A stretch of DNA of 64,000 bases from assembly GCA_018970175.1 (NCBI GenBank), contig JAGWWV010000001.1, positions 29,605 through 93,604 of the forward strand, in the 5' to 3' direction. Origin of the DNA: Acidobacteriota bacterium. GTDB taxonomy: Bacteria; Actinomycetota; Acidimicrobiia; Acidimicrobiales; Ilumatobacteraceae. Under the pieces are notes generated by a model. That model saw only the letters and a program-made list of their open reading frames with translations. It was not told where the DNA came from and ran no database searches. The position numbers were made by a program, and so were the translations under genes. Each line of letters opens with the position of its first letter. The stretch's first letter is position 1. This document shows positions 5,626 through 55,505 of the stretch, in pieces.

Positions 5626-5629
5626 CGAA

Positions 5630-10399: not shown

Positions 10400-10434
10400 T
10401 ATGGTGGAGACGTTCGCCGAAGGGGGGTTCGCGG

Positions 10435-25514: not shown

Positions 25515-26887
25515 AAACCGTCAATACCGTCAATACGGCGAAGCGAATCTGCGTCACGCTCTGCGCGGCGATTCTTGCTGCGTCGTGCAGTTCGAGCCAA
25601 CCCACCACCTCGGAGCCGACCACAACGACCGCACTCGACTGGACCTCGTGCAACGGCGTCGAGTGTGCCGACCTCGACGTGCCATTCGCCTACGACGATC
25701 CCTCGCGCGGTACGTTCACGCTGAAGGTCAGCCGGCAGCGGGCGTTGAAGGCCGATCAACGCGTCGGCGTGCTGATCGTCAATCCGGGAGGGCCCGGTGG
25801 ACCCGGTGTCTCGTTGGCCCAGAATGCCGCGTTCTACTTCAGCCGTGACATCATCGACCGATTCGATATCGTCGCCTGGGATCCTCGAGGTACGGGTGTG
25901 TCGACCCCCGCAGTTGATTGCATCGACAACTACGACGACTACTTCACACGGCCCCTCGATGCGCAGACGGCGCAACGCTTCGTCGACGCCTGCACCGAAC
26001 GCTCGGGCGACGTACTCCCCTACGTCGGGACCGCGAACTCGGCACGTGACATCGATGCCTTGCGGCGTGCACTGGGTGAAGAATCGGTCTCGTACTTTGG
26101 GTTCTCCTACGGCGGGGTTCTCGGTCTCACGTGGCAGGGCCTTTTCCCCGAGACCGTGCGCGCGATGGTTCTCGACGCACCGCCCAACCCGGCTGCCAGC
26201 CGGGCGGAACGCATCGCGGCACAGGCCACTGTGTTCGAGTCGCTCCTCGACGAGTTCCTCGAACCACCCGGACGGATGGATGCGTGGAACGCGGTGATGG
26301 CATCGCCCCCGACTGGTATCACCGCCCAGATGGTGCTCACCGCCACGATTTCGGCGCTCTACGACACCGAATCTTGGGGTGAACTTGAAACCGCGCTGAC
26401 CGCTGCCTCTGCAGGTGACGGCTCGAAGATCCGCGCAATGTACGAGGGCTTCTACTACCAGGACGCGGGATTCGAGGACTTGCGCAACACCTTCGAGGCG
26501 TCCGTCGCCATTTCATGCGTCGACGACACGACTCGCACACCCATCGATGACCTGACGAAAGTTGCACCGCGTCTCCATGTATTTTTTGGCCCCGATGAAT
26601 TGTGCTCGCGCTGGCCCGCCGCCACTTCCGAGTCGTACGACCCGCCCGCGGCAGGCGCGACCCCCACGGTGATCATCGGCGCAACGAAGGATCCCGCGTC
26701 ACCTTTCGCCGGCGTTCGGGCCACCGCAATGGCTTCCGGAAACACCCGATTGATCACCGTCGAAGGAAACCGACATACCAGCTACTTCGGGGTCGACTGC
26801 GTCACGGCGCTGGTCGATTCGTATCTCATCGGCCTCACCGATCCGGGTGACACCACCTGCCCGCCGGGGGCAAAAATCAGCGAATGA
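25508..26887 (+). CDS. exported alpha/beta hydrolase (TAP/tripeptidyl-aminopeptidase-like, S33-type)
   Basis: The lipobox is LAASC-S, followed by a T-rich linker, the nucleophile elbow GFSYGG and a TAP-like C-terminal region. The ATG overlaps the previous stop (ATGGTGA). Confidence 0.8.
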   Translation: MVKTVNTVNTAKRICVTLCAAILAASCSSSQPTTSEPTTTTALDWTSCNGVECADLDVPFAYDDPSRGTFTLKVSRQRALKADQRVGVLIVNPGGPGGPGVSLAQNAAFYFSRDIIDRFDIVAWDPRGTGVSTPAVDCIDNYDDYFTRPLDAQTAQRFVDACTERSGDVLPYVGTANSARDIDALRRALGEESVSYFGFSYGGVLGLTWQGLFPETVRAMVLDAPPNPAASRAERIAAQATVFESLLDEFLEPPGRMDAWNAVMASPPTGITAQMVLTATISALYDTESWGELETALTAASAGDGSKIRAMYEGFYYQDAGFEDLRNTFEASVAISCVDDTTRTPIDDLTKVAPRLHVFFGPDELCSRWPAATSESYDPPAAGATPTVIIGATKDPASPFAGVRATAMASGNTRLITVEGNRHTSYFGVDCVTALVDSYLIGLTDPGDTTCPPGAKISE

Positions 26888-29800
26888 AGACCTGCACGGC
26901 CATCGACCGTCGGAGACCCGTCGTGTTGTTGCAGCAGCCGAGCACGTCGCCCGCAGACCAACCGTTGTCGCTGAGTCCGATTCCGCCCGACGTGTCGTCC
27001 GAACCCTTGTAGCCGTTCGGCCACAAGCCGCCGCCGTTTTCGTTCCACCCGAAGCCCCAACGCGCCTTACGGTTGTCATTCCAGTTGAATCCGTAGAAGC
27101 GGATATCGGCCTGCGACGACCAGATCGTGCCCCGGTAACCGTCGAAGAGAAGCGCGTCGGAGACGAATTGTTCGTCGGTCCCCTGGAACACGGAGAGAGC
27201 GGTCTTCGGCCCACTCGGCACCGATGTCTTCCACGTCCATCCGTAGTTGTGTCCGTCGACGGATCCACGTTCGGTCGCCCCGAACGACGACGTGTCGATG
27301 TCCGGGAAGATCGCGAGGAGTTCGGTGCCCCGCAGTTTGTTGAAGGTCGAGAACTTCGCATCGGACGACGTGGTGTTGGTGGAGCCTTCGTTCAGTGTGT
27401 TGGCCGTCGTCCAGTAGTTGGATGAGTACGGGAACGTCGTGCTGTTCTGCGCCGCCTTCATGATCATCGTCCAGCCACCACCGGCCATCGCGCTATCCAT
27501 CAGGCAGTAGGCCTGCGTCGGGACGATGACCCCGCCCGAGTTGACATTGATCGTGTAGACGCCGTTCGCGTTCGTTCCGGTCGTTTCCTTGATGTCCTTG
27601 CACGACTCGCGACGCTGCCACGACCGTACGGCCCGAACCTTGGCTGTCTGATCGATTGGGCTGGCTGAGGCGGTTCCGGACTGGTCGACGACGTGAGCTT
27701 GCCGAGACGTCATCGTGACGTCGAACGTCAGGATTGTGTGGTCCCACGCATAGTTTCCTGAACCGCGTCCGACGATGACATAGATCATCTCGCCGGCCGC
27801 GAGTGTCACGGACGAAGCAGTCGTAGTTGCAGTTGTGGTCACGCCCGAGCTGATTGAGCCACTGCCAAGGAGCTGATAATTCGTCTCACCCACAAGGCCA
27901 CGTTGGACCCAATAGTCGATTCCATCGGCGTTGTTGAACGGATACGCCAACTTGAGCCCCGCGGACAGATCGACCGTGATTCCCGAACCGGTCGTGTTCT
28001 TCCACGCAACGCCGACGCCGTAGCCGCTGTCGTCAGGATGAATGAGAATGCTGGGCCCGGTCATCGCGGAGCCGGACGGCGCAGTCGTCACGTTCTGGAC
28101 GTACGGATAGTTGGGACCGGCCCATTGCGTGCGGTTGTTGTCCCACTGAGGCTGATTCGGAATATTTTCGTTGCCCGCGGTCTGCCAGTCCGACAGCAGC
28201 GTTGCCGAAGTCCTTCCGGCGGGGACCTCGAAGTACTGCCAGGTGTTGTTCGACGACTGAGCCGTCGGTCCACTGACAAATCCACTTTGCACGCTAGACA
28301 CCGTCGGCAACCCGCTGGCACCGGACGAAGTCCAGTAGCTGCCCGTTGGCAACGTGATGTTCTTCGCCGCGAGATTGGTGATCGCAGTCTCAAGCTCGAG
28401 CTTCGACGGCAGATACCAGTCGGTCGTGGCACTCGACGGGAGCGAGGCGGTCTTCACCCAGACAGCCATGGTTGCGGGGACATAACCCGAGCCGGTACCG
28501 CTGCCGGTCACGTATCCATTCGAACCGCTGTGGTGCAAATAGAGAGCACTGAACGCTTGACTGTCCTCGTTCCAGTCGAGCTGCGGATTGATGCCAGGAT
28601 TCGAAACGAGACCATACGCGGATCCATAACGAACCCCGAACGTCTTGTTGCGCATGTACATCTGGGAAGGCAGCGACGACGCGCCCTTCAATTTGTTGAC
28701 TGTCACGAGGGACTGGTCGGCCGACGTTCCATTCAGCGAGAACGAAGAGGCCGAACCGTTGTAGACCGGGGGCGAGGACGTAGTCCCCGACAATGTCATC
28801 TGAGCAGCGCTCGGAAGCGCGAACGACACCGCGTTGTCGTAGGACATGATTCCACCAGTGGGCAATCCTCCGCCCGGGTTCATCCAAGAGATCACCATGT
28901 CGCTCGCACCCTGGATGGCGGAAAGAGCATTGAGATTGGCCGACCCCGTGCGGGTCGCGGCGTTGAAAGAACCGTTTGCAACGTTCCACTTGCCGAATGA
29001 GCCGTTCTCCCCGTACGCAACGAGTTTCCAACCGCCGCCCGCCGTCGACATGTCAACATAGGTCGTTCCGAGTCCACTCACCGCGGAGATGCCGGATGTT
29101 GTCGGCAGACCGGTGTTCGTCGCATAACCATCCGCTGCAGATGCCGCGGCACACGAACTACTTGCCGCCAAGATCGCCGACGTGTTCGCAGCGCCGGTCC
29201 CGATCGCCGTACCGGTCGTTGCCGAGGCAGCACTGTTGGGACACCACGTCGCTGACGTAGATGCGTCGGCAGCGGCGATCTCCATGAAGTCGAGGTCGGG
29301 GTACTGGTTGTTGGTATCGAGGAGGAAGACCGTTCCGCCACCCGGGCCCTCGTCACCGATTCGACACGTGCCACCGTCCTTGCAGAGCGCACCGACGGCC
29401 AGTTCGAAGGTCAGCGAGGCATTGGTCCAGTTCGCCCCGCCCGGCACCGACGCAGTGAGAATTGTGGAACCTGCGGCAAGGAGGTCGACCACGCCCGTTG
29501 TCGAGTTGATGGTTGCCACGGCACCATCACTGCTCGTGTAGGTCACCGATCCCGCACCGTTCGTGTTCGGTATCGCAGGGTTCATCGTGAAATTCGGATC
29601 GTCCGCGCGGTACGGACCGCCCGGAGCGGTGAATCCGGTCAGCGTGGGAGTCGCCTTTGTGACGGTGAACGACGCGGTCTGAGTCTTCACAAGATACGCG
29701 CCGTACGCAGGCTCGGTTGCTGTGAACGTGGTCGAACCGGCCCCCACGATCGTCACGCGACCGGAGTATTGGTCGATGGTCGCAACCGCCGTGTTGCTGC

Positions 29801-32800
29801 TGGAGTACTCGGTGACCGCGGGGTTCAGCGAAGTTGGCGCGGTGACGGAGAATGGCGCGGTTCCGAATACGTACGACGATGCGGGCAGCGCGAAGCCCGA
29901 CAGCGATGCATTGATGACGACGGAACCCTTCGCCGCGAAGGCGCGAATCGGCATGATTCCACGGAGATCGGTCTTCAGGGCGTCGTATCGAACTCCCGAA
30001 ACCAGGTCGACCGTGTAGGCGCGTGTGGCATTGACCTGATTCGACGCCCAGAACTCACCCGTTACCCCGGTCAAGAGTCCCGCATCGACCAGGTTGGTCT
30101 TGACGAGCTGCAACTCCGTCGGCGCGGGCAGGTACCAATCGGTCTTCATCCCACCCTGGAACAAGCGCGCCGTGTGTGCCGCGCTGCTGGTGCAATTCGT
30201 GAGGATTCCCCGCATGTTGAAGATGCCTTGGGCGTTGTCGGATGTGCCCGACAGCGACGTCGTGGCGGCGGCCGTGTTGCACCAGCTGGTGGTCCCGCCG
30301 ACGACCGCAACCTCGAGATAGTCGACACCGACGTAGTCGTCGTTCGTGTCGACGAAGAAGACCTTTCCGCCTCCTGGGCCGGTGTCTCCGATTGCACATG
30401 AGATACCGAGCTGACAGTCGGTGAGACTTCCGCCGACCGGTGGTGTCTCCGGTGCCACACACGCCCCGCCGTCGGCACAGGACCTCGCAACCGAGAGCGT
30501 GACACGACTGCTTGCCGCCTTCGCGGCTCCGGTGCCGCCCTGTGATGCGCCGAGAACGGTGGTTCCCGCCCCGGTGATCGTCACGACACCGGTACGAGCA
30601 TTCACCGTCGCGACGCCGGGGTTCGAGCTCACGTAGGAGATCGGTGTCGCCTCGCTTGTCGGAGCGAACGCGCGAATCGGACGAACGTAGCGATTGTCCC
30701 ATTTGCCCGCGTAGGTCGGGGTGTCCTGGCAGGGATGTTGCAGGTAGTGATAGTTCGCATCGAACTCGGTGGATGTCGAGTACCACTCGTCGCACGGCAG
30801 ATACCCGATGGTGTCGCGCTTGAGATAAACCTGCCGCATCTCCTCCAATGACGGCAGGTACCAATCCGACAGTCCACCGCCGTTGTAGGTCCGCGCCATC
30901 GTCGCAGCGCGGCTGATCGTCGACGACTGGGCGACGATTGCCTGTGAGTTTGCGAAGCCTGCACCGATTCCCACACCGCGCGCGGACGCACCGATGGCGA
31001 CGTTGGTGATTCCCGACCATGGTGCGCGCGGATCCTGATTTGCGCCGGACCAGGTCGCCGGCGCGGCTTCGAGATACTTGCACGACGAACCACACGCGGT
31101 ACCCGGCGCGGCAAAGCCCTTCGACACAAAGAAGACCCGACCACCACCGGGGCCGGTGTCACCCACGACGCACGGACCGCCCTGGGCGCACGTCACGGTT
31201 TCGATCGCCCGGCTCGATGTCGGCGCCGTGAGCGTGAACGAGGGGCTTGCCGTGGTGTAGTTCGAACCGGGCAGTGTGAGCGCGCCGAGGGTCGTCGACG
31301 CGGGTCCAGACCCGGCGAATGAATTGGAGACGTCGGTCGGCGTGTTGACGTTGCCCGACGTGATGTTGCCGATTTGGCCCCAATCGTTGTAGCCCCAACA
31401 CTTCATCGCATCGTTGGCGACGATCGCGCAGGTCGAATAGCCGTTCGATGCCGAGAGCTCGAAGACCCCCGAGGAGAGTCCGGATACATCAGTGGGAACG
31501 TAGCGACGTGTCGTCGTACCGTCCCCGAGTTCACCGCTGTCATTGCGGCCCCAACACTTGACACCGCCGCCCGTCGTGATCGCACACGTGTGGAGACCAC
31601 CTGCGACGACGCGCGCCACGCCCGTCGAGAGTCCGGTCGGGGTCGTCGGTGTGCTGCGGTCACTCGTCGTACCGTCGCCCAACTGGCCGTATCCGTTGTA
31701 GCCCCAACAACGCACACCACCTGTGTTCAACACCGCACACGAATGGTGGAAGCCGGCGGCAATGCCGACCGCACCGGAGAGTCCGCTGACCGTACGGGGC
31801 GTATAGCGAACCGTCGTGGTGCCGTCACCCAGGTTGCGCCAATCATTGCGACCCCAACACCGCACGGTTCCGTTCTCGAGAAGTGCGCACGAATACTCGT
31901 AACCGAGATCGATCTGAACGACCCCCGACGTGAGACCGACAACGTCGACGGGGGTCGTGCGGTTCTCGTTCGTACCATCACCCAACTGTCCGTAACCGTT
32001 GTAGCCCCAGCACTTGACTCCCCCGGCGGCGGTCAAGGCACACGTGTGCTGATAGCCGGCGTCGACTTGAACCACACCCGACGAAAGCCCCGTCACCGCG
32101 ACCGGGACGTAAGGCCGAACAGATGTGGTACCGAATCCGATCTGACCGTTGTCGTTCAAGCCCCAGCACACGACCCCTCCGCGGCTCGTCACTGCGCACG
32201 TGTGGTGATGTCCAACGGCGATCGACGCTGCGCCCGACCCGAGGTCGGTCACCGTTGTCGGGACCAAGCGACGCTCGGTCGTCGAGTTGCCAAGCTGACC
32301 CCAATCTCCGTTACCCCAACACTTCGCTTCACCGGCGGCGGTGATGCCGCACGATGTGTGGTACCCGGCACTCACCTGGACGTATTCGCTGTCGGGCACC
32401 CCGACACGTGCCAGAGACACCATTGCAGACTGCGTCGCCGTCGCGGGAAGGCTGGCCCTGACATAGGCGACACCCGTCCCGACGATTGAAATGGTGCGTG
32501 CAGTCGCATCGACGGTCGCAACCGCAGGGTTTGTGCTGCTGTACGTGATCGAGTCCGAACGGTTCGTCGTGGCAGCGGCGAACGAAACGTTTGTGTCACC
32601 GACGCGGAAGCGCTGCGTCGACAGGGTGACCGGCGAGAGCTGTGTTTCGGGATCCGTGGTGATGGTTGTCTTGATGCCGGTGACGCCCACCGGTGAATAC
32701 CGGTTCGTCGACGACTTGTCGCCGAGTTCGTTGCCGTCGTTTCGGCCCCAACACCACACCGCACCCTTCACCGAGAGCGCACAGGAGAAGCCGTACCCCG

Positions 32801-40262: not shown

Positions 40263-40268
40263 GTGAGG

Positions 40269-40274
40269 ATTTTA
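40269..40274 (-). promoter_or_regulatory. candidate -10 hexamer (TAAAAT) for a leaderless transcript of the giant gene
   Basis: The minus strand reads TAAAAT-cctcac-ATG. The hexamer ends 6 nt before the start codon, no SD is present, and the 74-nt spacer is the most AT-rich stretch in the locus. Confidence 0.3.
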
Positions 40275-40336
40275 TGGCAGTTTTGGTGACTATTTCAGGT
40301 CGCCCCCCACCATTTCTTCGATAGAAAACCTTTAGT

Positions 40337-41626: not shown

Positions 41627-42171
41627 GCGGGTTCCGCCACTTCGCCGTCGGGGAGGGTCGTGTTGCATGCAAAGAAGGCCGCCACGAGCTCGGCTTGCCT
41701 GGTGGCACCGAGAACTGCATCGGTGAACTTCGCATCGGTGGCAAAGGCCCCCGCAAAGTCGGCGGCATCGATCTGCGCGCCGCGCAGAGAGGCGCTGCTG
41801 AGGCGTGACCGCGCGAGGTTCGCACCTGCCAGGTTTGCCTCGTCGAGCGAGGCCCGTACGAGTGCTGCACCGGCGAGGTTCGCACCCGCGAGATTCGCCC
41901 CAATCAGGTTCGCATCGGTAAGGTTCGTACCCGAGAGATTCGCTCCGGCAAGATCCGCCTCACGCAGATCGATTCCCGACAGGTCGATCCCCGACAGGTC
42001 GGCCCCCACCAGGTCGGCACCGCGGCACGCGCCGCGCGCCACGGGCGTGCAGGTTGCGACAGTGGTTCCGACGACGACCGCATCGTTCGCGGTCGTGTCG
42101 TTTCCGTCCCCGCACGCCCCGAGAACGACGGCGCACACGCCAACTGCGGCAATCCGGACAAAGCGCTTCAC
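41620..42171 (-). CDS. exported pentapeptide-repeat lipoprotein
   Basis: The lipobox is VVLGAC-GDG, followed by ~25 tandem pentapeptides (ADLVGADLSGIDLSGIDLREADLAGANLSGTNLTDANLIGANLAGANLAGA...). The GTG start overlaps the upstream stop (GTGA). Confidence 0.85.
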   Translation of the reverse strand: MKRFVRIAAVGVCAVVLGACGDGNDTTANDAVVVGTTVATCTPVARGACRGADLVGADLSGIDLSGIDLREADLAGANLSGTNLTDANLIGANLAGANLAGAALVRASLDEANLAGANLARSRLSSASLRGAQIDAADFAGAFATDAKFTDAVLGATRQAELVAAFFACNTTLPDGEVAEPAC

Positions 42172-43919: not shown

Positions 43920-43942
43920 GCGACTACCAGTGGTGAGTCGGA

Positions 43943-46900: not shown

Positions 46901-49900
46901 GAAGACAAGTTCGCACTTGCCTCCAACCTGACATGTGGCCGTCACGGCCGCACCGGGCTCACTCACCCTGACGCCGGGTCCGGCAGCCGAACCGACCGGG
47001 AACCAGTCGGTGATGCCCTTGAAGGCGAGGCTGAAGGTGCGGGTCTGGTCCTTGCGAACCATCGTGCCGGTGAGGTTGCCGAGCGGCAGGCTGAATCCGG
47101 GGAACGGCGACCATGACGTCGTGCCGCCCGTCGGCTTCACCGTCACCTGGAACGAGTAGTCGGTGGACGACACGTAGTTCAGGTTGAAGCCCAAGACGAT
47201 CGGTGTCGTCGGAGTCGAGATCTCGATGTCACCCGTACCGGTTGCCTGAACGGAACCGGTGGTGTTGTTCAATTTGAGGTCGAGCGAGGCCACCTTCACA
47301 CCGTCGATGACGGTGAGTGGCTGCTTCACCTTGGCCGAGATGTCGTAGACGAGGTTCTTGCCCGTTCCTTCACGCGAGAATGTTCCGGTGATGTTGGTTG
47401 CGTTCGAGTCGTAGGTTGCCGTGAGCGAGAACGCTCCGCTGGCAAGGGTCATGTTGCCCTCGACCTTGACCGCACCGAAAGTGAGAGTGGTGCTTCCCGA
47501 CAGCTGCTTCACGACGTCGGGGGTCGGCATCGACAGCACGAGGCGTGGTGCGCCTGCGGGCAGGCTGATGGCCGGCAGCGACGGGAAGTTCGGAACCTTC
47601 GGCGTCCAGTTGATGTTGCTGGGCGCGCGCAGCGCCCAGGCGAACTGACCACCGTCGAAACCGATGTCGGAGTTCGGGAACTTGAACGACGGGAAATCGC
47701 CCGTGAGCAGGACGCCCGCCGAGCTGAAGTTGACGTTCGCATTCAGGGTCGCGCCGAAGAGCGCGAACGTGCCCGACAACGAAGCCGATGCACGGTCGGT
47801 GCTGGTCTTCGGCGGGATCGCCAAACTGAAGGTCGGTGCCAACAGCTTGATGTCGGCGTTGAACGCGAGGTCGTTGAACTTCGCAGAGAATGCAAAGCCC
47901 TTGTCGTCGAGTTTCCCGCTGATCTCCGCCGAGTTCAGACCCGTGATACCGAGGTCGAAGCCGAGCGTGCCCTTCAGGTCGAACGCCGGGACGCACTTGG
48001 CACCCGTGTTGCAGGTGACAGACGCCTTGGCCGACACGTTGGTGACACTCAGCCCGCTGACCGGCTTCCACGGACCAGCCGTCGACAAGTTGACGTCGAG
48101 GACGCTGCCTGCGGCGGTGCGCTTGAACGTACCGCTCGCCTGACCGAGGCTCAATGCCTCGCCACCGGTGACCGCAAACGACGGGGCCGTTGCTCCGGCC
48201 GACACGGTGACCGTGAAGTCGGTGGCCGAGTTGTAAGCAACCGCGCCGGCGACGGTGACGACCGTCGAATCGGGCAGCTTCACGTCAACCGAACCGTTGC
48301 CGGTGAGGGTGAGCGGGCCACCCGCCGTTGCGTTGCCGAAGGTGACGTCGAGCGTGGTGATCGACACCGAGTCGGTGAGGGCGATGGCCTTCTTCACCTT
48401 GCCGGTGAGGTTGTACTTGAACGGATCTCCGGTCTTCTCGCGGCTGATTGCACCCGCAAGGTCGATCGAATCGTTCGACAACGATGCAGCGAGGCTGAAC
48501 TTGCCGGTCGAGAAGTCGACTTCGCCGTCGAGGGCGATGTCACCGACATTGCTGACCGTTGCCGAAGCGAGACCCTTGATCTGCTCGGGCAGTGCGATTG
48601 CCATGTTGAGACGCGGCACCTTGGGTGTGAGGTTGACGGACTTGATGTTCGGCAACGACGGCACCTTCGGTGTGATCGAGATCGGACCCGACGACCAGCT
48701 GAGCTGACCCGGCTTCCAGACCGGACCGCTTGCGCCGAACGGCGCGAGCTCCGGCAGATCGGCGGTCAGCAACACGCCGGTCTTCGAGAACGTGGCCGAA
48801 GCACTGACGGTCTTTTCGAACACGGTCATCGAACCCGCCAACGTGACGGTGGTCGCCGCGTTGGCTGCACCGATGTTGGTGGAATCGATCGAGAGCGACG
48901 CCGAGGTGATGTCGAGACCCGCGACGAGCGGAATCTTGTCGAGCGACGCCTTCAGCGAAGCGGTCTTGTTCGTGATGTCGACCGCGCCGGTGATCTTGCC
49001 GGTTGTCGAAGTTGAACCAAGGGTCACTTCCGCACCCGAGTCGAGGTTGACCTTCACATCGCAGGCACCCGTGGCCGGGCATTGTGCAGTCGCCTTGATG
49101 GTGGGTGCAACGAACTTGAGACCCGAGAACGGCGAGACATCGCCACCAACGACGGTGACGTCGATTGTCTTCGCGCCGTCCTTGGCAACGTACGAACCCG
49201 ACGCGCTGGCGAGCGGGATGGAGATGTCCTTGCCCGGGCTCCACTTCCCACCCGTTGTCGCGGCCTTCACCGCGAACGAATGGTTGTTGGCATCGGTGTA
49301 GTTGAGATCGGCAGTCACCGCGAGTGCGGTGTCCCCGGAACCAATGGTCATCGTGCCGGAGCCGGTGATTGCACCACCCTTGTCGTACGACGCCGACAAT
49401 GCCGTGATCTTCACGTTCGACGTGAGGGCGATTTCACCCTGGAGTGCGCCTGCAAGGCTCACCGCAACGTCGGCCTCGGGAGTTTCACGCTTCACCGAAC
49501 CGGTGAAGTCGATCGTCGAACCAAAGAGTTCGAACCCATTGGCGAGCGATGCGTCGAGGGAGAACGTGCCGTTCGTGGCGACTGCACCCGCAATGCGGGC
49601 CGTCGGCTTCTTGCCGTTCTTCTCGGGACCGGTTGCAGTTGCCTCGAGGCTGACGGCCTTGCCACCCTCGGCATCAACGCTGAAGGTCAGCGTCGCTGCG
49701 GGTGTCCAGCCAGCGGGCAGCTTGAGGAACGGCATCGAGCCGGATTCGATCTTGCCTTCGAAGGCGCCGATGGCGACCGACGCACGCGAGAACGGGATGA
49801 AGAGACCGACGGGGTCGGTTCCACCGATCGAGAACACGGGTGAACCCCACGACTCGGGTCCGGTGAATGTCGCCGAGCGGATGGTGAGACCCGCGGCACT

Positions 49901-52900
49901 GATCGTGCCACTGGCACCTGACACGGTGAGATAACCAGCGAGCGAGAACCCGGCGTTCGAGAACGACACCTTCGAGCTCTCCGAACACGTCGAGGAGTTC
50001 ACCTTGAGCTGTGACAGATCAAGATTGCCGATACCGATCGCCTTGTAGGTCGCTTCGAGCTTGGAAGAGGTGTTCGTCGAGATTGCCTCGACGAAGTCAC
50101 ACAACGGAGTTGGTGCACCGCTCGGGTTCATCTGCAGTGTGATCTGGTCGGTCGCACTGGCGCCGGTGGCGTCGGTGGCGGTGACCAAGATGACCGCGGT
50201 GCCGATTGCAGCCGACGCCGCAATCGAGAGCGCTGCAGTGTTTGCGCCGTTCAGCGTGAGAGCAGGACCCGACACCTGTGACCAGGCGTAGGTAATGGCA
50301 CCCGAACCAGTGGCGGTTGCGTTCAGTGCAACTGCTTTCGCCGTGTCGACCGCCAATGGACCTTCGCCCTCGGCGATGTTCGCCGACAACGTGGCAGCGC
50401 CACCGGTGCCGACAACGACGGTGACGACGTCGGTTGCCTTCTCACCGCGCGAGTCGGTGGCAACCACACGGAGGCTGATGGTCGTGTTCGCGGCGGGTGC
50501 GGTGAATGCAACCGTCGCGGTGTTCGTGGCTGCTGCTGCAAGCACCGACGGTGTCGGACCTGCGGCCTGCGACCATGCGTAGGTGACGGCGCCCACGCCC
50601 GAAGCCGCAGCAGTAACCGACACCGCGGCACCTTGCGCGACGGTGAGTGTGGAACCACCGAAGATGTTGCCGTTGACGGTGACGCCGGCGTTGGCCGACG
50701 TCAGAACGGAGGTGTCACCCGCGCCGGATGTGGGCGCGGTAGCAGCGAATGCGCGAACGCTCGGCCCCGACTGCTTCGGCACGCGACGCAGCACGGACGA
50801 ACCGCTACCGCTTCCGGCCTTACCGGTCGGACCCTGCGCGGTCGGCAATGGCTGGACGCGCACGGAGAAGCGTGCGGTGTGCGAGGTTCCGGCCTCGTCG
50901 AGTGCCGTTGCTTCGAATACCAGCGTCTCTTCGGCCTTCACCGCGGGTGCGAGCAGGTTCGCCGTGGGGCCCGTGGACGGGGCGTCGTTGACCCACTTGG
51001 CCGCTGACGTGACGGCCTTGCACTGTCCGTTCGACGCCTTCACATCGGCGTCGGTGGTGCAGAGCTGGCGCCACGTGAACTTCGAGCCATCGGCGTTGCC
51101 AACGGTCGTGAGAAGAATCGACGAGGGCATGCGCTTGCCCGTTGCGTCGACGATCTGGTCGACGATGACGTCGGGTCCCTGGATCGAGAACGACAGGGGT
51201 GCGCGCAGGTCGATTTCCTGCGTCGAGGTTTGGCTGGTTGGCTGGCCGTAGATGTTCGAGACGATCGACGTCGCCTGCAGCACCATCTTCTTTGCCTTGG
51301 GGTCACTCGACTGGTAGTCGACGGCGACGGCCTTCGACACTTCGCCGACCTTCAACGGCAGCTTGCGCGAGCAGGCGATGAACCCCTCGGCGATGAATCC
51401 GCCGACAACTGCACAGCTCCAACCCTCACCCTTGGCACCGGTCAAGCGACCGCCCTTGGTCTTGATGATCATCGACTGGGCGTTGGAGTCGGCCGTGCCT
51501 TCGTTCTTCACGCTGAACTGCGCGGCGGCCTTGCCACCCGGACGTGGTCCTGCGGGTGCGGCGATCGCTGCGGTGAGTGCGGGTTGCTGCTTGACGATGG
51601 TGATGCCCATGCCGTAGCGCGCGACCGGAGCGGTCTTCACCGTGGGCAGTGACGCGTACACCGGCCACTCGGGCTTGCCCGGCTTGGCCGAATTTGCGGC
51701 CTCGACCGTGAGGTTGAGAATCGGTGTCTGGGCCTCGGGGGCAACGGCTGCTGCGAGAGTCAGCTCGCAACGAATCGCTGCACCCTTCTTGCCCGGTGTG
51801 GCAACGGGAGCCGGAGCGGCGATGGCTTCACCCGCGCCCGCGAGGGACTCGGGCAACTGCACCACGGGGGGCGTGCCCTGACCTGCAACGCAGGCCCACT
51901 GGCCCGGTGTTGCAGGGATCTTCTTTCCATCGAGATCACCCTTGAAGTCGGCGTCCTTCGGTGCCGACTTGCCCGAGAAGATCGCGAAATCGGAAACGAA
52001 CTGTTCGAGGCGAACGACGGTTCCCGCCGCGATCGGAACTGCGCCGAGGTTCGACACTGCAAGGCCGTAGCTCGCCTTCTTGCCGACGACGATCTCGGTC
52101 GTCGAGCCATCGCTGACCGCCTGGGTTGCACCCTTCTCATCGGCGCGCGTGAAGACGATGCCGGGCATGGCGGCCGGAGCAGGCTGCACGAGCAGCGTCT
52201 GACCGGAGCGGTTGTTCTCGACCTTCGCTGCATCTTCGTTCTCGGCGGAGATGACGCTGATGACCTGGGCCGCGCCCGTTTCTGTTTCCTCGGTCGTCGT
52301 GAACTTGAAGGCAATCGTCTCTTCGGCGGTGTCGAACAGTTCGGCCTTCACGCACTTGAGCGCGGTCGAACCCTCGCCTGCGGCGGGGTCGGCGGCGGCA
52401 GAAGCACAGGTCCAGCCGGGTGATCCGTCGGCTGCCTTCTCCATCGTGACGCCCTTGCGGACACCGACGGTGACGGCGACGTTCTGGCCGATGCCGTTGA
52501 TCGAACGCACCTTCGCGTCGACGAGCAGAGTGCCGGGTGCGACCATGCTGGTCTTGCCGTCACGGGCGATGACCTTCGCCACGAGATCGGGCTTCGGCGC
52601 CTCGTTGATCTGCGACGTGAGCTCGGCGAGAGCCTCGAGCTGCGTGCCATCGGCCTTCACGCGGCTGACCGAGTTGACCTTCCACGTGAACGGCTGGGCC
52701 GTCACTGCTGCGGTTTTCGACGTGCGGCCTTCGATGATGAGGGGCTCACTGAAGAAACTCGGCTGAATTTCGCCGCCGGTGCGCGTGCAGCGCTTCGGCG
52801 CGGCGGGGTCGTCGCAGGTCCAGCCGTTGCCCGAGATCTTCACATCGGTGAGGCCGATCTGTGCGGGAAGGATGTCGGTGAAAGTGATGTCACCCGAAAA

Positions 52901-53920
52901 GGCCTGATCGCACACCGGAAGGGTGCGCAGGACGATCTTGAATCGACCACCGGGGTAGGTGTTGCCGGACGGTTCACCATCGACATAGACACATGAACTA
53001 CGACGAGTGTCGTCGGCGGCGCTGGTGCCCGCGTTGCTACGCGGTGCACCGAGAACTGCAAGTGCGAACTCGTCGTTCTCCGGGGCGACGTCACCCGCGA
53101 GTGACGCGCGGACGAGGAAGTGCGGCACGGTGCGCGACAGCGCCTGGATGCCGGCGATGTCGCGCTTCTCCGCGAGGTCGTTGCTCTTGGTCGTGTACGC
53201 ATCGTCCGCGACGAAGAGCTCCGCATCTGGTGCGTAGTTCACGCGCAGATCGGCGCGCACGACACCCGCAACGGGGATGATGCCGCTCGAGATTCCCGCA
53301 TCGGTCTTCTGCTTGAGCGTGCACGATGTCGCGTTGCACTCCCAGCCCTGGTCGCCAATGGCCGACTTGTCGTTCAATGTGGGCAGGACTTCGAGCACCT
53401 TGACGCCACGCGGCAACTTGGCGAGCGAGAACGAGACGGGTGCCTCGATACCGGCAGCCACATTACCCATGTTCGACAAACGAACGATGACGACCGCATT
53501 GAGGTCGGTCGTGACGACGCTGGTTTGGTTGGCGGAAGCCATGATGTCGGGACCCGACTTCGTGTTGCCGGCGGTTGCGGGCGGCAGCGTCGAGGCGGGT
53601 GCGGTTGTGGCGGGCACCAAGTCGACGTTGTCGGGCTTGGCGTCGCTCGGCAACGGTGCGAGCAACGTGTTGTCGAGACCCGGAATGGTGGTGGGCACGG
53701 CAGTATCGGTTGCAGCGGGTGCGGCAGCACCCGGGACCGTCGTCGTGGTGGCATCACCGGAAGCGGGCGCACCCGTGGTGGTGGTCGCCTCGGCTGCCGG
53801 AGCAGCGGTGGTCGTCGTCGGATCGTTCGGGCTGCTGGCGCCGACCGGGGTGATGTCGACGATCGCGATGCTGATCGCGGCCGTTGCCAATGCAAATTTC
53901 TTGAAGCTATTCATGCTCAT
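43943..53920 (-). CDS. giant exported protein of unknown function (~3325 aa)
   Basis: This is an uninterrupted ORF. The ATG at 53920 overlaps the upstream stop (ATGA) and opens MSMNSFKKFALATAAISIAIV..PVGA, a signal peptide (the ORF track starts 3 codons earlier, at 53929).
Regions in order:
- a T/A/P-rich linker;
- several DUF11/CARDB-like beta-sandwich patterns;
- two PKD-like units (xxTYAWSQxxGP);
- three ~355-aa modules;
- a ~770-aa Gly/Ser/Asn/Phe-rich beta-type tail ending in a Trp-rich segment. Confidence 0.85.
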   Translation of the reverse strand: MSMNSFKKFALATAAISIAIVDITPVGASSPNDPTTTTAAPAAEATTTTGAPASGDATTTTVPGAAAPAATDTAVPTTIPGLDNTLLAPLPSDAKPDNVDLVPATTAPASTLPPATAGNTKSGPDIMASANQTSVVTTDLNAVVIVRLSNMGNVAAGIEAPVSFSLAKLPRGVKVLEVLPTLNDKSAIGDQGWECNATSCTLKQKTDAGISSGIIPVAGVVRADLRVNYAPDAELFVADDAYTTKSNDLAEKRDIAGIQALSRTVPHFLVRASLAGDVAPENDEFALAVLGAPRSNAGTSAADDTRRSSCVYVDGEPSGNTYPGGRFKIVLRTLPVCDQAFSGDITFTDILPAQIGLTDVKISGNGWTCDDPAAPKRCTRTGGEIQPSFFSEPLIIEGRTSKTAAVTAQPFTWKVNSVSRVKADGTQLEALAELTSQINEAPKPDLVAKVIARDGKTSMVAPGTLLVDAKVRSINGIGQNVAVTVGVRKGVTMEKAADGSPGWTCASAAADPAAGEGSTALKCVKAELFDTAEETIAFKFTTTEETETGAAQVISVISAENEDAAKVENNRSGQTLLVQPAPAAMPGIVFTRADEKGATQAVSDGSTTEIVVGKKASYGLAVSNLGAVPIAAGTVVRLEQFVSDFAIFSGKSAPKDADFKGDLDGKKIPATPGQWACVAGQGTPPVVQLPESLAGAGEAIAAPAPVATPGKKGAAIRCELTLAAAVAPEAQTPILNLTVEAANSAKPGKPEWPVYASLPTVKTAPVARYGMGITIVKQQPALTAAIAAPAGPRPGGKAAAQFSVKNEGTADSNAQSMIIKTKGGRLTGAKGEGWSCAVVGGFIAEGFIACSRKLPLKVGEVSKAVAVDYQSSDPKAKKMVLQATSIVSNIYGQPTSQTSTQEIDLRAPLSFSIQGPDVIVDQIVDATGKRMPSSILLTTVGNADGSKFTWRQLCTTDADVKASNGQCKAVTSAAKWVNDAPSTGPTANLLAPAVKAEETLVFEATALDEAGTSHTARFSVRVQPLPTAQGPTGKAGSGSGSSVLRRVPKQSGPSVRAFAATAPTSGAGDTSVLTSANAGVTVNGNIFGGSTLTVAQGAAVSVTAAASGVGAVTYAWSQAAGPTPSVLAAAATNTATVAFTAPAANTTISLRVVATDSRGEKATDVVTVVVGTGGAATLSANIAEGEGPLAVDTAKAVALNATATGSGAITYAWSQVSGPALTLNGANTAALSIAASAAIGTAVILVTATDATGASATDQITLQMNPSGAPTPLCDFVEAISTNTSSKLEATYKAIGIGNLDLSQLKVNSSTCSESSKVSFSNAGFSLAGYLTVSGASGTISAAGLTIRSATFTGPESWGSPVFSIGGTDPVGLFIPFSRASVAIGAFEGKIESGSMPFLKLPAGWTPAATLTFSVDAEGGKAVSLEATATGPEKNGKKPTARIAGAVATNGTFSLDASLANGFELFGSTIDFTGSVKRETPEADVAVSLAGALQGEIALTSNVKITALSASYDKGGAITGSGTMTIGSGDTALAVTADLNYTDANNHSFAVKAATTGGKWSPGKDISIPLASASGSYVAKDGAKTIDVTVVGGDVSPFSGLKFVAPTIKATAQCPATGACDVKVNLDSGAEVTLGSTSTTGKITGAVDITNKTASLKASLDKIPLVAGLDITSASLSIDSTNIGAANAATTVTLAGSMTVFEKTVSASATFSKTGVLLTADLPELAPFGASGPVWKPGQLSWSSGPISITPKVPSLPNIKSVNLTPKVPRLNMAIALPEQIKGLASATVSNVGDIALDGEVDFSTGKFSLAASLSNDSIDLAGAISREKTGDPFKYNLTGKVKKAIALTDSVSITTLDVTFGNATAGGPLTLTGNGSVDVKLPDSTVVTVAGAVAYNSATDFTVTVSAGATAPSFAVTGGEALSLGQASGTFKRTAAGSVLDVNLSTAGPWKPVSGLSVTNVSAKASVTCNTGAKCVPAFDLKGTLGFDLGITGLNSAEISGKLDDKGFAFSAKFNDLAFNADIKLLAPTFSLAIPPKTSTDRASASLSGTFALFGATLNANVNFSSAGVLLTGDFPSFKFPNSDIGFDGGQFAWALRAPSNINWTPKVPNFPSLPAISLPAGAPRLVLSMPTPDVVKQLSGSTTLTFGAVKVEGNMTLASGAFSLTATYDSNATNITGTFSREGTGKNLVYDISAKVKQPLTVIDGVKVASLDLKLNNTTGSVQATGTGDIEISTPTTPIVLGFNLNYVSSTDYSFQVTVKPTGGTTSWSPFPGFSLPLGNLTGTMVRKDQTRTFSLAFKGITDWFPVGSAAGPGVRVSEPGAAVTATCQVGGKCELVFTATGRVSVNVGQGWTTPATLTGTFTKDRSELKAVFADLPVTAGVTIKAPTLAVAYATQGGLSASVAGSADVLGTTLSMSATFSAQGVIVSGGMNDWTPIPGGPTLTNASFAFATYNALQVTLPNAPNLGKVDIPLNNPTLLAGFKVPQWLKDMVKQPSLNVVPVTVPLKDLAAGKLPTLKIMLPTPGDWFLFKTSSLSMRFAGFGVEIGGSPTPSMSLIGNIEFITGSGQTPIPLEVRGTVSTTAISMALSLGIDSTTGKPYEWKNAFGISGLTLSDAAIQVGINFATTPFPLPTIGIAATAQLPDAWKKPLGMEAGVAVRLMANIDVTKPCFQFKAGTLGGDGKTISAGSAKVINVGSGVLTSTFMDLTIAPLGCQIGNQILDPGISVGFSGTVLGTPVDVRAKIGTNPFSLEASLAIGAFRAGGVQVDETRLTIKVSPTESFVAFAGGITIGSTKVSVNGNIGYNVTDGPWVDLTGSVDNLSIVPGFLEIRSAAVRVNVRPKNGFAEVQARGDFNFLGAVTQVDFAMSMSNFKLQTLKANVRAVRTIAGVVKIDGTFSIDYKDGQFPTLAFDATGSVAGYDFGRVTGVVDKNQVKITGTISVGGVFSAQLTGQVVWAAGSGITIVNRDGQTVTAAAGDFRVGADNITINLGGFGASGSVLVGRASGVAYARFNASFSIGSGNIGGNLSVSGDFGTDGNFRFAGSGNLNLVGFSAAVNVSGSKSGANWAFALSTNIRVLGAVDVGFSGNFSRTNNAFRFTMTGNASLSAAGVAASGSFTISNEPGREGMSASVSLQVPGISGSGSIAINADGTFDASIGVSVSLGIVRAGGTLKMGNVAYWNGQRYRGGTYFSVSGYFETAGIGFWFSGNINANGSFDFSVNSGFNWNSGEVYLVVVKLRLSASVNASLRIYSWSPYFSFSASGTVSVQGSRYYIDAGCRAWKPKCWWNDGWTGWSNWVSLGLGFSVNPTSIWVDYDGRRYGIR
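46250..49440 (-). repeat. three divergent tandem ~355-aa protein modules inside the giant CDS
   Basis: Several landmarks recur at a period of ~1065 nt:
- NVKITALSASY / SVSITTLDVTF / GVKVASLDLKL;
- a C-x-x-G-x-x-C loop (CPATGAC near 49075, CNTGAKC near 48005, CQVGGKC near 46922);
- SMTVFEKTVSASATFSKTGVLLT / SGTFALFGATLNANVNFSSAGVLLT / SADVLGTTLSMSATFSAQGVIVS. Confidence 0.75.
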
Positions 53921-54990
53921 TTCGCACATCCTGTCGAAGCGAAGCCGGTGAGAGCCCGGGCGTCACCCGAGCTCGCAAAAACTGGACGGTAAGTGGGCGT
54001 GGCGAAAGCCACCCGATCGATTGCGGCGCGTTGGCGCACGAGGCTCGCGGTTTCGGCCGTCGCGCCCTTCAGCAACTTGGCTGCATCCGCGAGGAGAATC
54101 TTCGGGCCGCCGTTCTGGAGCGCCGACGTGCAGTTGGCCACCGACCAGATTTGGTTCTTCCAACGCAGTTCGCCGATACCCAGTTCGACGTTGCGGCAGG
54201 TGGCCGCGGTGTCACCCGAACAGCCGAGCGCCCAGTCGCGGATTGCGTTGCCGGTCTTTTGCGCCTCGGCACTTGCGGGGTCACCGATGAGGACTTCGAA
54301 GCCCCAACCGCTGCCCTGGTACTGCCCGACTCCGACCGCAGTCGCATCGAGGCCCCGGACTCCGGTGATCCCCGAGCCGGGAAGGGTTGCCGCGAGCAGG
54401 GCCTTCACCACTTTCTTTGCGGTGGGCGAAAGGAAGGCGCAGTTGTCGCACGGTTTGCCGTTGACCGTCCAACGAAGCGTGAGCGGAGTGGCAGTACCCG
54501 ACCATTCGGCCGCAGTGACGTTGAGAATGCCGTCGGCGTCGGCGCGGTACGTGGTGCCGACTGCCTTGGCCGCGTTTGTCGTGATCGATGCCTCGGCGGG
54601 AAGTGCGGGGCGCGGAGAGCCGAGCGGGTCAGTGGTTGCGAGATACGTCGCCTGGTAGCCGCCCGGGTCCTTCACTTTGGTGACTTCGGGAACCGTCACC
54701 TCGGGTGCAGCAGTTGTTGCAGGTGACGCAGTGGTCTCTGTCGTCGCGGCTGCGGTGGTTGCCGGCGCAGTAGTCGTTGTCGGAGCAACGGTTGTTGCGG
54801 GTGCCGTTGTTGTCTCGGTTGTCGCCACCGCAGTTGTCGTGGGTAGCGCGGCGTTCTTCACGCGCGTCGATGCGGTTGTGTCATTCGACGACGAGTCGGA
54901 TGACCCGCCGCACGAAGCCAACACGACCATGGCCGCGATGACCCCGGTCAAGAACGATCGTTTCCTCATGATTGATGTACCTCTCATCAT
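53917..54990 (-). CDS. exported lipoprotein of unknown function
   Basis: The lipobox is VVLASC-GGSS, followed by a ~75-aa T/A/P-rich linker containing ASTRVKNAALPTTT and a ~250-aa Cys-containing globular region. The ATG overlaps the upstream stop (ATGA). An alternative start is at 54969 (MRKRSF). Confidence 0.7.
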   Translation of the reverse strand: MMRGTSIMRKRSFLTGVIAAMVVLASCGGSSDSSSNDTTASTRVKNAALPTTTAVATTETTTAPATTVAPTTTTAPATTAAATTETTASPATTAAPEVTVPEVTKVKDPGGYQATYLATTDPLGSPRPALPAEASITTNAAKAVGTTYRADADGILNVTAAEWSGTATPLTLRWTVNGKPCDNCAFLSPTAKKVVKALLAATLPGSGITGVRGLDATAVGVGQYQGSGWGFEVLIGDPASAEAQKTGNAIRDWALGCSGDTAATCRNVELGIGELRWKNQIWSVANCTSALQNGGPKILLADAAKLLKGATAETASLVRQRAAIDRVAFATPTYRPVFASSGDARALTGFASTGCAK

Positions 54991-55505
54991 TTCCCGGGCT
55001 CACAGTTCGCCTTCACCCACGTCTGCACGTTGGCGGACGCGGTGTTGGCATCGGATGTTGCGAATTGTTCGATCAGCGAGTTGAACTTGTCCAAAGTCGG
55101 GTCGCCGGAAATTGCCTCGGCCATTCCGCGCGCTGCGGTGGCAACCGCATCGGCATCGGCCTTCACATCGCTCGGTGCGACCGCTGCCATCTCTTCGAGT
55201 GCCGTGGCATTCGCCGACAACTTCTCGGCGATCGCGGCGGGGTCGTCGTCGGCTGCGATGTCGGCGCCGCCCTGGTTGTCGAGTGCCGACTTGCAGAACT
55301 CTTCAACCGACCCCGTTGCTGCTGCAGCAGCGGTGTCGGTTGTTTCACCTTCTGCGTCGGCTGCAACCTCGGTGGTGTCGGCAGTCGATTCATCGTTCGA
55401 TGACGAGTCGGAACCACCGCATGCACCCATCGCAAACGCACCGACGATGCACACAGCAAAAAATTTTCCCCTCGCACGACGAACGCTCACCGCTGCCCCC
55501 TTCAA
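54987..55505 (-). CDS. small exported lipoprotein of unknown function
   Basis: The lipobox is FAMGAC-GGSD, followed by an acidic T/A/D/E linker and a ~100-aa helical-looking region. The GTG at 55490, preceded by GAAGGGGG, may be the real start instead of the TTG at 55505. Confidence 0.65.
   Translation of the reverse strand: MKGAAVSVRRARGKFFAVCIVGAFAMGACGGSDSSSNDESTADTTEVAADAEGETTDTAAAAATGSVEEFCKSALDNQGGADIAADDDPAAIAEKLSANATALEEMAAVAPSDVKADADAVATAARGMAEAISGDPTLDKFNSLIEQFATSDANTASANVQTWVKANCEPGK

Follow-up and report, generated by a model that had tools for sequence, protein, structure and literature searches.

A conserved locus of seven exported proteins, two of them giants, in freshwater Acidimicrobiia

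We analyzed a 64,000-nucleotide stretch of contig JAGWWV010000001.1 (GenBank assembly GCA_018970175.1, positions 29,605 to 93,604; GTDB family Ilumatobacteraceae), hereafter the window, in which seven minus-strand open reading frames (ORFs), g1 to g7, fill the 28.6 kb from position 55505 down to 26877. All seven products carry export signals, and two, g3 and g7, are giant proteins. Judged by gene order and protein identities, this locus is real and conserved across many freshwater Acidimicrobiia (Ilumatobacteraceae and relatives); it is probably chromosomal and vertically inherited. We lean slightly toward reading it as a co-functioning extracytoplasmic module, with a core of g1-g2-g3 and an accessory trio of g4-g6. 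The genes are as follows.

g1: 54987 to 55505, minus strand; small acidic predicted lipoprotein of 172 amino acids (aa)
g2: 53917 to 54990, minus strand; predicted lipoprotein of 357 aa
g3: 43943 to 53920, minus strand; Sec-exported giant protein of 3325 aa, alternative start at 53929
g4: 42168 to 43919, minus strand; predicted lipoprotein of 583 aa, FG-GAP beta-propeller plus putative UnbV/ASPIC domain, CRTAC1-like
g5: 41620 to 42171, minus strand; predicted pentapeptide-repeat beta-helix lipoprotein of 183 aa
g6: 40337 to 41626, minus strand; Sec-exported vanadium-haloperoxidase-like enzyme (PAP2 superfamily) of 429 aa
g7: 26877 to 40262, minus strand; predicted lipoprotein of 4461 aa, lectin-rich adhesin-like mosaic

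Gene layout and conserved order

The ORF listing of the window places all seven genes where an initial annotation of this DNA had put them, and the four overlapping junctions it described all read as claimed: g1/g2 is an ATGA overlap at 54987-54990, g2/g3 an ATGA at 53917-53920, g4/g5 a GTGA at 42168-42171, and g5/g6 a 7-nt overlap, ATGTTGA, at 41620-41626. The remaining spacings are 23 nt (g3-g4) and 74 nt (g6-g7). The listed ORFs extend further upstream for g3 (43943-53929), g4 (42168-44084, with an internal ATG at 43919), and g6 (40337-41668, with an internal ATG at 41626). Two starts are ambiguous: g1 could instead begin at a GTG ∼15 nt past the TTG at 55505, and starting g3 at 53929 instead of 53920 would give a 13-nt overlap with g2. 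An "MC.M" N terminus of the g3 ORFs (window 53917-53929) is kept in all relatives because the invariant C terminus of g2, TGCA[KQ]-stop, is read in the overlapping frame; as a by-product of g2, its conservation cannot choose between the two g3 starts.

A scan with a PROSITE PS51257-type pattern found a lipobox within the first 29 residues of g1 (AMGAC), g2 (LASC), g4 (ALGC), g5 (LGAC), and g7 (LAAC), 5 of 5, and orthologs of these proteins keep their lipoboxes; all five are predicted lipoprotein substrates of Lgt/Lsp. The N termini of g3 and g6 combine a basic n-region with a hydrophobic core and lack a lipobox, as in Sec-type signals, so that the split into five lipobox and two Sec-type signals proposed originally agrees with the scan.

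We read gene order in relatives from tblastn searches with all parts of the locus and from ORF maps, counting informative loci only. A scan of GTDB species representatives yielded 27 loci, all from Acidimicrobiia-type metagenome-assembled genomes (MAGs) or genomes, and the order gatB, g1, g2, g3, g4, g5, g6, g7 was found at 44 to 97% identity. Orthologs of g3, in the same identity range, occur in 22 species-level genome loci. Directly upstream of g3 lies the g1-g2 pair in 14/14 loci; downstream, g4 comes next in 19 of 22, g5-g6 follow g4 in all 13, and g7 follows g6 in 10 of the 11 loci that extend far enough. In an independent metagenome scan seeded with g2, g3 came next in every one of the 27 loci that were at least 6 kb long, and seeding from g6 homologs (46 to 49% identity) recovered the order giant, FG-GAP/UnbV protein, pentapeptide protein, vanadium-dependent haloperoxidase (VHPO), giant. 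The 4- to 13-nt stop/start overlaps are kept down to ∼45% identity. Synteny of homologs across many genomes, on which the initial annotation had staked its grouping, is thus borne out.

The g1-g2-g3 core is, by its overlaps and copy pattern, translationally coupled and both inherited and duplicated as a block. Loci L002 and L007 carry a second g1-g2-g3 unit in tandem, directly after g3, and a second g2-g3 stands after g7 on metagenome contigs Ga0222712_10000233 (L052/L087) and OUVC01000092 (L054/L081); a locus with two modules can exceed 40 to 50 kb. In L011, the genes after a paralogous g1-g2-g3 encode a solute-binding protein and a small lipoprotein that bears the N-terminal domain of g7, and L021 lacks g7, its g6 adjoining the same TAP-like hydrolase gene that follows g7 in the window. 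In Ilumatobacter coccineus, a giant with 24% identity to g3 lies in a different genomic context without g4-g6; it is coupled to an upstream 162-aa acidic, two-Cys, membrane-anchored protein that is g1-like in layout, not in sequence, a positional analog. The core occurs without g4-g6 in L011 and is reduced to a small protein plus giant in I. coccineus and second copies. What stood of the original claim of a tightly coupled set is co-inheritance and translational coupling; the set is modular, not one fixed seven-gene system.

More distant relatives of g3 (∼26% identity) are found in Microthrix-like MAGs and in the complete genomes KE-4 and TE-7; these giants carry Fn3 in place of PKD domains. 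Downstream of each, on the same strand, come a secreted protein of 2540 to 2580 aa made almost wholly of pentapeptide repeats and then an NHL propeller/Fn3 protein of ∼500 aa. This triad of beta-meander giant, extracytoplasmic pentapeptide helix, and propeller thus predates the Ilumatobacteraceae locus. The pentapeptide giant at L028 12517-20259 (also in L025, L026, and L029) has 24 Pfam stretches (624 bits) and a LamG-like segment, and as a beta-helix it would form a very long rod.

Records L003, L009, L017, L019, L021, L022, and L024 are titled "uncultured Bifidobacterium sp."; since they show 54 to 95% identity to Ilumatobacteraceae/Acidimicrobiia loci, these names are probably wrong.

The seven could instead be unrelated envelope genes that are neighbors by chance, their order kept by kinship and without joint function, which we consider quite unlikely. 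All close relatives do belong to one class, and gatB, a housekeeping gene, stays adjacent in most of them, so conserved order alone is weaker evidence; a promoter-like gap precedes g7, which L021 lacks, g4-g6 are absent from L011 and I. coccineus, and stand-alone proteins with the g7 N-terminal domain occur in unrelated contexts. Chance neighborhood fits poorly, however, with overlaps retained at such divergence, with the fusion of g5 to g6 described below and the duplication of g1-g2-g3 as a block, with the recurrence of giant, pentapeptide protein, and propeller side by side in another context in ∼26% relatives, and with g6-type enzymes at 46 to 49% identity that, in the cases examined, occur only here. 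Block duplication and the distant relatives provide linkage evidence that is independent of local context.

The core proteins g3, g1, and g2

Consistent with the initial view that g3 lacks recognizable catalytic domains, the only domains that Pfam recognizes in it are two of K319L-type PKD; what that view had missed is structure of a noncatalytic kind, a huge beta-hairpin meander. We divide the protein as follows.

g3 aa 31-130: 53531 to 53830, minus strand; Thr/Pro/Ala-rich low-complexity stalk after the signal peptide
g3 aa 131-1050: 50771 to 53530, minus strand; five ∼160-aa repeats, each with a GW[TSE]C...C motif (by inspection)
g3 aa 1051-1290: 50051 to 50770, minus strand; two K319L-like PKD domains (PF22352, E = 8e-15, two stretches)
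g3 aa 1291-3325: 43946 to 50050, minus strand; ∼2000-aa amphipathic antiparallel beta-hairpin meander

G, S, T, A, and N make up 58% of the stalk. One of the ∼160-aa repeats carries a QWAC variant, and their region holds 14 Cys; we presume that they are Ig-like modules. A DUF11/CARDB label for these repeats was considered and dropped, as residues 131-1050 had no Pfam match even at E ≤ 5, nor had residues 1291-2500. The PKD pair itself is located at about aa 1100-1270. By eye, the meander consists of three ∼360-aa repeat units (aa 1380-2450, with landmarks TPKVP...LP and C..G.KC) and an ∼870-aa terminal module whose tail is Trp-rich and has two Cys. A self-comparison of g3 by BLASTP reported no internal repeat, and the ∼360-aa units are a weak claim because they were seen by eye only.

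An AlphaFold2 (AF2) model of the last 825 aa (aa 2501-3325), built from a 13-sequence alignment, has a predicted local distance difference test score (pLDDT) of 79 and a predicted template modeling score (pTM) of 0.45. It consists of ∼55 antiparallel strands of 10 to 22 residues joined by two- or three-residue turns, with a mean Kyte-Doolittle hydropathy of +2.0 on one strand face and −1.1 on the other. At this local level, the model gives good support for an amphipathic hairpin meander of great length. Foldseek matched it in the PDB to LptD, ushers, SprA, SlpA, and the ApoB100 beta-belt at E values of 1e-6 to 1e-3, with template modeling scores (TM) of only 0.12 to 0.26 and root mean square deviations above 20 Å; among viral structures, it returned only generic beta-rich tail fibers and MORN-repeat sheets. 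Since these TM values fall below ∼0.5 and there is no sequence match, we rejected assignment of g3 to outer-membrane barrels (LptD/usher) or to AsmA/TamB, and membership in the ApoB100-type belts was likewise rejected on TM-scores. Searches of PDB sequences found no relative of g3, and its C-terminal region matched no Pfam, NCBIfam, or PDB sequence family.

Searching with the C-terminal module nevertheless defined a family. A word-indexed search with the C-terminal 826 aa returned 12 proteins, all hypothetical, and a hidden Markov model scan of 1.84 billion representatives gave 393 clusters at E ≤ 1e-3, 136 of them at E ≤ 1e-30. Members are mostly 2000 to 3500 aa long, some up to ∼7200 aa, with the module at the C terminus and a signal peptide in front; those that are named are all Actinomycetota, and no member has a functional annotation. 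They include WP_041297919/BAN00786 (YM304_04720) of the cultured I. coccineus YM16-304. All told, ∼3000 of the 3325 residues of g3 are without family, structure, or literature, as are all of g1, g2, and the g7 N-terminal domain.

The amphipathic strands raise the alternative that g3 is a sheet that binds lipids or other hydrophobic substrates, comparable to the beta-belt of ApoB100 or the groove of TamB/AsmA, with the lipoproteins docking to it. We judge this improbable to about the same degree as chance neighborhood. Microthrix is known for lipid uptake, and Microthrix-like genomes hold distant g3 relatives; the highest query TM was to ApoB100 (0.22 to 0.26, versus 0.12 to 0.17 for closed barrels). 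These scores are nonetheless far below fold-level similarity, the g3 signal has an AxA-type cleavage site in place of the AsmA-type N-terminal membrane anchor, the module contains no lipid-metabolism genes, and a two-layer or self-associating protein would be just as likely to have an amphipathic sheet.

Within the proposed module, g1 and g2 are the lipoproteins of the core. The g1 protein has two Cys near the ends of an ∼110-aa domain, is 32 to 92% identical among relatives, and is encoded directly upstream of g2 in all of them. In g2, the lipobox is followed by an ∼70-aa Thr/Ala/Pro linker containing the motif TRVKNAALPTTT and then by an ∼250-aa domain with six invariant Cys (C181, C184, C257, C265, C287, and C355) in an alignment (A3) with a mean column identity of 66%. 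Pfam and NCBIfam gave only noise for either protein even at E ≤ 10, and a g2 profile had no match in the PDB; g2 is a new family.

The accessory trio, g7, and flanking genes

Pfam agrees with the domain content originally assigned to the trio, FG-GAP for g4, pentapeptide repeats for g5, and PAP2 for g6. In g4, PF13517 (FG-GAP_3) matched at E = 4.6e-24 (85 bits), as did PF01839 (FG-GAP); PF07593 (UnbV_ASPIC), at 22.8 bits, fell just under its cutoff of 23.4, and is listed for the g4 orthologs in L001, L094, and L095. Tandem A(D/N)LXX repeats place g5 well above the Pfam gathering thresholds for pentapeptide-repeat proteins (PF00805, 88 bits versus 20.2; PF13576, 41 versus 27).

The closest solved structure to g6 is the vanadium iodoperoxidase of Zobellia galactanivorans (4CIT; phmmer E = 1.4e-38), which aligns over query aa 56-421 and chain residues 58-444, both helical bundles. 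The g6 motifs KYRWAVERP, PEYPSGHS, and SRVLGGIHYR have the cofactor-site patterns KxxxxxxRP, PSGH, and SRxxxGxH and align to those of 4CIT; cofactor-binding residues are conserved across the VHPO class (PMC11871015). Other VHPOs (9L8X, 9PTR, and NapH1) match at E values of 1e-6 to 1e-4, whereas PAP2 phosphatases match only weakly (E, 0.08 to 0.45). Pfam reports PF01569 (PAP2) and PF22778 (VCPO_2nd), the latter also precomputed on homologs, which NCBI names "vanadium-dependent haloperoxidase." By its residues, then, g6 is a vanadium haloperoxidase homolog with intact cofactor-site motifs.

In L001, the g5 and g6 homologs form one 571-aa lipoprotein, pentapeptide repeats first and the VHPO-like part second. 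We considered an assembly frameshift as its origin, because g3 is split in that contig, and rejected it: no g6 signal peptide is found at the junction in any frame, so that the fusion is true, and P0300 is another protein fused in this way. In L021, the g6 homolog seems to carry its own lipobox. The fusions and this lipobox suggest that the VHPO-like enzyme works tethered to the membrane, with g5 as tether or partner where the two are separate. The g3 ortholog in the same L001 contig is split into overlapping ORFs (3688-10197 and 10001-13039; 2169 and 1012 aa) by an assembly indel or a real frameshift, and the automatic gene caller put spurious opposite-strand genes over its first part.

Tethering is also central to a further alternative, in which the module is a defense or substrate-processing station: hypohalous acid generated at the surface by the tethered haloperoxidase would serve to inhibit other microbes, interfere with quorum signaling, or oxidize dissolved organic matter, with the giants as shield or ligand binders. 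Intact VHPO-type motifs, tethering by fusion or by an own lipobox in some lineages, the lectin-type domains in which g7 is rich, and a candidate selenocysteine oxidoreductase lipoprotein encoded directly upstream, which could repair oxidative damage, fit this idea; the g1-g2-g3 core nonetheless exists without g6, an H2O2 source and a halogenated product would have to be assumed, and it is gatB, rather than g1, to which the redoxin gene is coupled. We regard this alternative as very unlikely.

The last gene of the proposed module, g7, has the following parts, of which the first is new and was overlooked initially.

g7 aa 55-340: 39243 to 40100, minus strand; new domain with GHCEG ... GGHA ... 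YDSNWPG
g7 aa ∼627-692: 38187 to 38384, minus strand; 2.5 tandem 66-nt repeats with three copies of VQTRNAALPTTT
g7 aa 701-4461: 26880 to 38162, minus strand; domain mosaic from the Big_2 array onward
g6-g7 intergenic gap: 40263 to 40336, minus strand; AT-rich; a promoter-like CTGAAA-18-TAAAAT stops 7 nt short of the g7 ATG

The description of g7 as an adhesin-like mosaic is supported by Pfam and NCBIfam domains: Big_2, Laminin_G_3 (aa 1350-1505), PA14/GLEYA (1867-2000), RCC1 propellers (∼2100-3000; this part matches the UVR8 and HERC2 structures in the PDB), Lcl_C/DUF1566-type modules (∼3030-3720), and a fibrinogen-like GGGWT domain (NF040941) from aa 4220. The N-terminal domain gave nothing but noise in Pfam and NCBIfam even at E ≤ 10, and it matched no PDB sequence. 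Its three motifs are ≥90% conserved among 42 sequences (alignment A2), and their order, Cys-His-Asn, is that of papain and of clan CA. An AF2 model (pLDDT, 88; pTM, 0.78) matched best in Foldseek to the clan CA peptidases IdeS/Mac-1, SpeB, and staphopain; because these fold matches are weak (E, 0.02 to 0.2; TM, 0.2 to 0.3), assignment as a putative, membrane-proximal papain-like cysteine-peptidase-like domain is plausible, not proven. The domain also occurs in ∼60 clusters of Actinomycetota proteins of 500 to 1100 aa. In the one case checked, P0051, a stand-alone ∼700-aa lipoprotein (L030 10001-12103), two TetR-family regulators flank the gene, a context unrelated to the g3 locus.

The VQTRNAALPTTT copies (Tandem Repeats Finder period 66, 95% matches) lie between this domain and the Big_2 array. 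A motif scan showed that the g2 and g7 linkers have in common the consensus T-[RQ]-[VT]-[KR]-N-A-A-L-P-T-T-T, with one copy in g2 (aa 42-53; window 54864), whose core residues are invariant or nearly so, and three in g7 (aa ∼629-685; 38378, 38312, and 38246); it is also found in g2 and g7 of L001, L003, and L004. That the shared motif could be a processing or docking site is speculation.

Given its absence at that position in L021 and the 74-nt AT-rich, promoter-like gap before it, g7 looks like a semi-independent part of the locus, the most loosely attached. The CTGAAA-18-TAAAAT sequence resembles an actinobacterial promoter for a leaderless mRNA, which is only suggestive; the AT-rich gap with TAAAAT 7 nt before the ATG would fit a separate, possibly leaderless g7 transcript. 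Promoter-like sites in the gap region were no more numerous than in shuffled sequences. The promoter and terminator scan found nothing above shuffles and no terminator after g7, and Rfam and tRNA scans of the window were empty.

G+C content in the window is uniformly 61 to 66%, and the locus shows no compositional break. Upstream lie gatA and gatB, then enoyl-CoA hydratase and lgt; downstream are a convergent TAP-like alpha/beta hydrolase gene and an acyl-CoA carboxylase gene. The lgt gene, for prolipoprotein diacylglyceryl transferase (60147-60983, minus strand), is ∼4.6 kb upstream of the five-lipoprotein locus, a proximity that is probably coincidental housekeeping synteny. Between gatB and g1 is one additional gene.

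TlpA/redoxin-like lipoprotein: 55627 to 56158, minus strand; in-frame TGA at 55924-55926 within WAPY-U-GTC

This ORF has 177 codons, and its TGA stands at the first Cys of the thioredoxin-fold motif (UxxC); with Cys substituted, the translation matches AhpC-TSA and Redoxin in Pfam. The TGA is kept in 9 related loci (56 to 82% protein identity), with conservation continuing downstream. A hairpin, CCUC-GGUC-GAGG, a candidate bacterial SECIS element, follows ∼19 nt after the UGA; in all 10 sequences, its codons are almost invariant at synonymous sites while flanking codons vary. Its folding stability does not exceed that of shuffled sequences (z = 0.64). The tRNA scan found no tRNA-Sec within the window. 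Selenocysteine use in Acidimicrobiia was recently reported for Actinomarina (bioRxiv 10.64898/2026.04.03.716425). We regard the redoxin as a strong candidate for an exported selenoprotein; standard gene calling would cut its ORF short. Because the start codon overlaps the stop of gatB, the gene is part of the gatB transcription unit, not that of g1.

Proposed function and comparison with known systems

If the module works as a unit, its parts might act as follows. Sec would export all seven proteins, and Lgt/Lsp would lipidate g1, g2, g4, g5, and g7, leaving them on the outer face of the membrane with Thr/Pro/Gly-rich stalks that would span the wall. Having no anchor of its own, g3 would be held and assembled by its dedicated lipoproteins g1 and g2, and its ∼2000-aa sheet could bury the hydrophobic face against another copy or a surface, giving an extended sheet or fiber. 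The g5 beta-helix lipoprotein could serve as membrane tether or scaffold for g6, which, together with the Ca-binding-type propeller g4, may oxidatively modify or cross-link the assembly or bound ligands; in short, the products may form a fiber or sheath with g4-g6 as its maturation enzymes. As for g7, it would be a neighboring glycan-binding adhesin, probably with its own promoter, whose papain-like domain may process the NAALPTTT linker motif common to g2 and g7. Any one of these steps, taken singly, is doubtful. A bolder version, in which the g3 family is a new actinobacterial envelope class (an outer sheet or belt of hundreds of amphipathic antiparallel beta-hairpins on a monoderm cell, assembled by two lipoproteins and chemically cured by a membrane-tethered, pentapeptide-docked VHPO), we hold to be unlikely.

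Several points weigh against the module as proposed. Interaction among the products, surface location, a single transcript, and enzymatic activity are all inferred; the sequence of a PAP2-type site cannot separate a haloperoxidase from a phosphatase; and the papain-like g7 domain depends on a motif pattern and weak fold matches. In the model, the beta region of g3 has a poorly defined overall shape (pTM, 0.45; Foldseek TM, ≤0.26). Both gatB and the redoxin gene also keep their place beside the locus in most relatives, and gene order may partly reflect class-wide conservation. Finally, some g3 genes (those of L011, I. coccineus, and second copies) have no g4-g6 beside them, and L021 has no g7; as they occur in these genomes, the seven genes are not an obligate set. 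The lipid-binding and haloperoxidase-station alternatives are compatible with the co-functioning module rather than exclusive of it.

We found no named system, whether for secretion, adhesion, or an S-layer, that fits the locus, and no library or literature search named the set, in line with the initial statement that it is not a described system. Motif and Pfam scans also uphold the lack of LPXTG, S-layer homology (SLH), or known anchor motifs in the two giants: g3 and g7 have no L[PA]xTG anywhere, no hydrophobic C-terminal segment as for sortase, and no transmembrane-like segment beyond the signal peptide, and none of the seven proteins has an SLH match in Pfam. Neither giant has the GGxGxD repeats of RTX (repeats-in-toxin) proteins or a HemolysinCabind match that would indicate type I secretion (T1SS), and the flanks hold gatA/gatB and metabolic enzymes. 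Our literature searches found no description of giant proteins from Ilumatobacter/acIV, of a pentapeptide, haloperoxidase, and FG-GAP set, or of Microthrix surface proteins.

The nearest analogs, giant-protein clusters of Apilactobacillus kunkeei and Lap-type protease-controlled adhesins, are conceptual only. Giant1-5 of A. kunkeei are consecutive genes for giant surface proteins with N-terminal parallel beta-solenoids, according to that report (PMC12863079). Both cases place very large Sec-exported surface proteins side by side, with a large genome share, and both have elongated, beta-rich giants without catalytic domains; they differ in that there is no sequence or domain relation and that the locus described here has an antiparallel hairpin meander, two lipoproteins, and an enzyme trio.

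Like the Lap system (LapA/LapG/LapD) and SiiE, the locus would encode a giant repetitive adhesin together with accessory proteins that control its retention. In Lap, a papain-superfamily cysteine protease cuts the adhesin near its anchor and releases it, which resembles the idea of the g7 N-terminal domain acting on the NAALPTTT linker. Lap and SiiE are, however, Gram-negative, T1SS-dependent RTX systems, whereas here export is predicted to be by Sec and lipoprotein signals, without RTX or T1SS genes, and the protease-like domain lies inside the giant itself.

Each accessory family has known relatives in other settings. With 4CIT, g6 shares the Lys/Arg, Ser-Gly-His, and Arg/His vanadate-site motifs; identity outside them is low, and g6 differs in standing in an operon or fusion with a pentapeptide lipoprotein, an arrangement of which we found no description in the literature. 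Like MfpA/Qnr, HetL, and PipB2, g5 is a PF00805 right-handed beta-helix repeat protein. To our knowledge, characterized pentapeptide-repeat proteins are cytoplasmic DNA mimics or injected effectors; g5, in contrast, is a predicted extracytoplasmic lipoprotein, with relatives that are a 2580-aa secreted giant or form the N-terminal tether to a VHPO-like enzyme. With CRTAC1/ASPIC-UnbV proteins, g4 has in common FG-GAP repeats and, by a match just under the cutoff, perhaps a UnbV/ASPIC C-terminal domain, but it is a predicted lipoprotein whose gene lies between a giant and a pentapeptide/VHPO pair; we know of no bacterial member of this family with an established function. Long amphipathic antiparallel hairpins relate g3 to LptD, ushers, the ApoB100 beta-belt, TamB/AsmA, and MORN sheets, from which it differs in belonging to a presumed monoderm actinobacterium and in being several times longer than single-chain barrels. 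The VHPO, pentapeptide, and FG-GAP/UnbV families are known singly; in the literature that could be searched, we found no description of their exported, coupled or fused arrangement beside a giant.

We describe the locus as a predicted giant surface-protein operon with accessory proteins, containing four families or modules without annotation. Acidimicrobiia of the Ilumatobacteraceae type are small-genome bacteria common in freshwater plankton, for which a 28.6-kb locus, doubled in some, is a large investment. The co-functioning module offers testable pairings (g1/g2 with g3, g5 with g6, and the giant with the pentapeptide protein), and I. coccineus YM304_04720 provides a cultured entry point. 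If the tethered VHPO-like enzyme is active, it would bear on halogen and iodine cycling and on the surface chemistry of lake bacteria. The bolder version, if true, would represent a new cell-surface architecture, with a new role for pentapeptide repeats and haloperoxidases; a g3 sheet that proved to be a new envelope layer would be categorically new.

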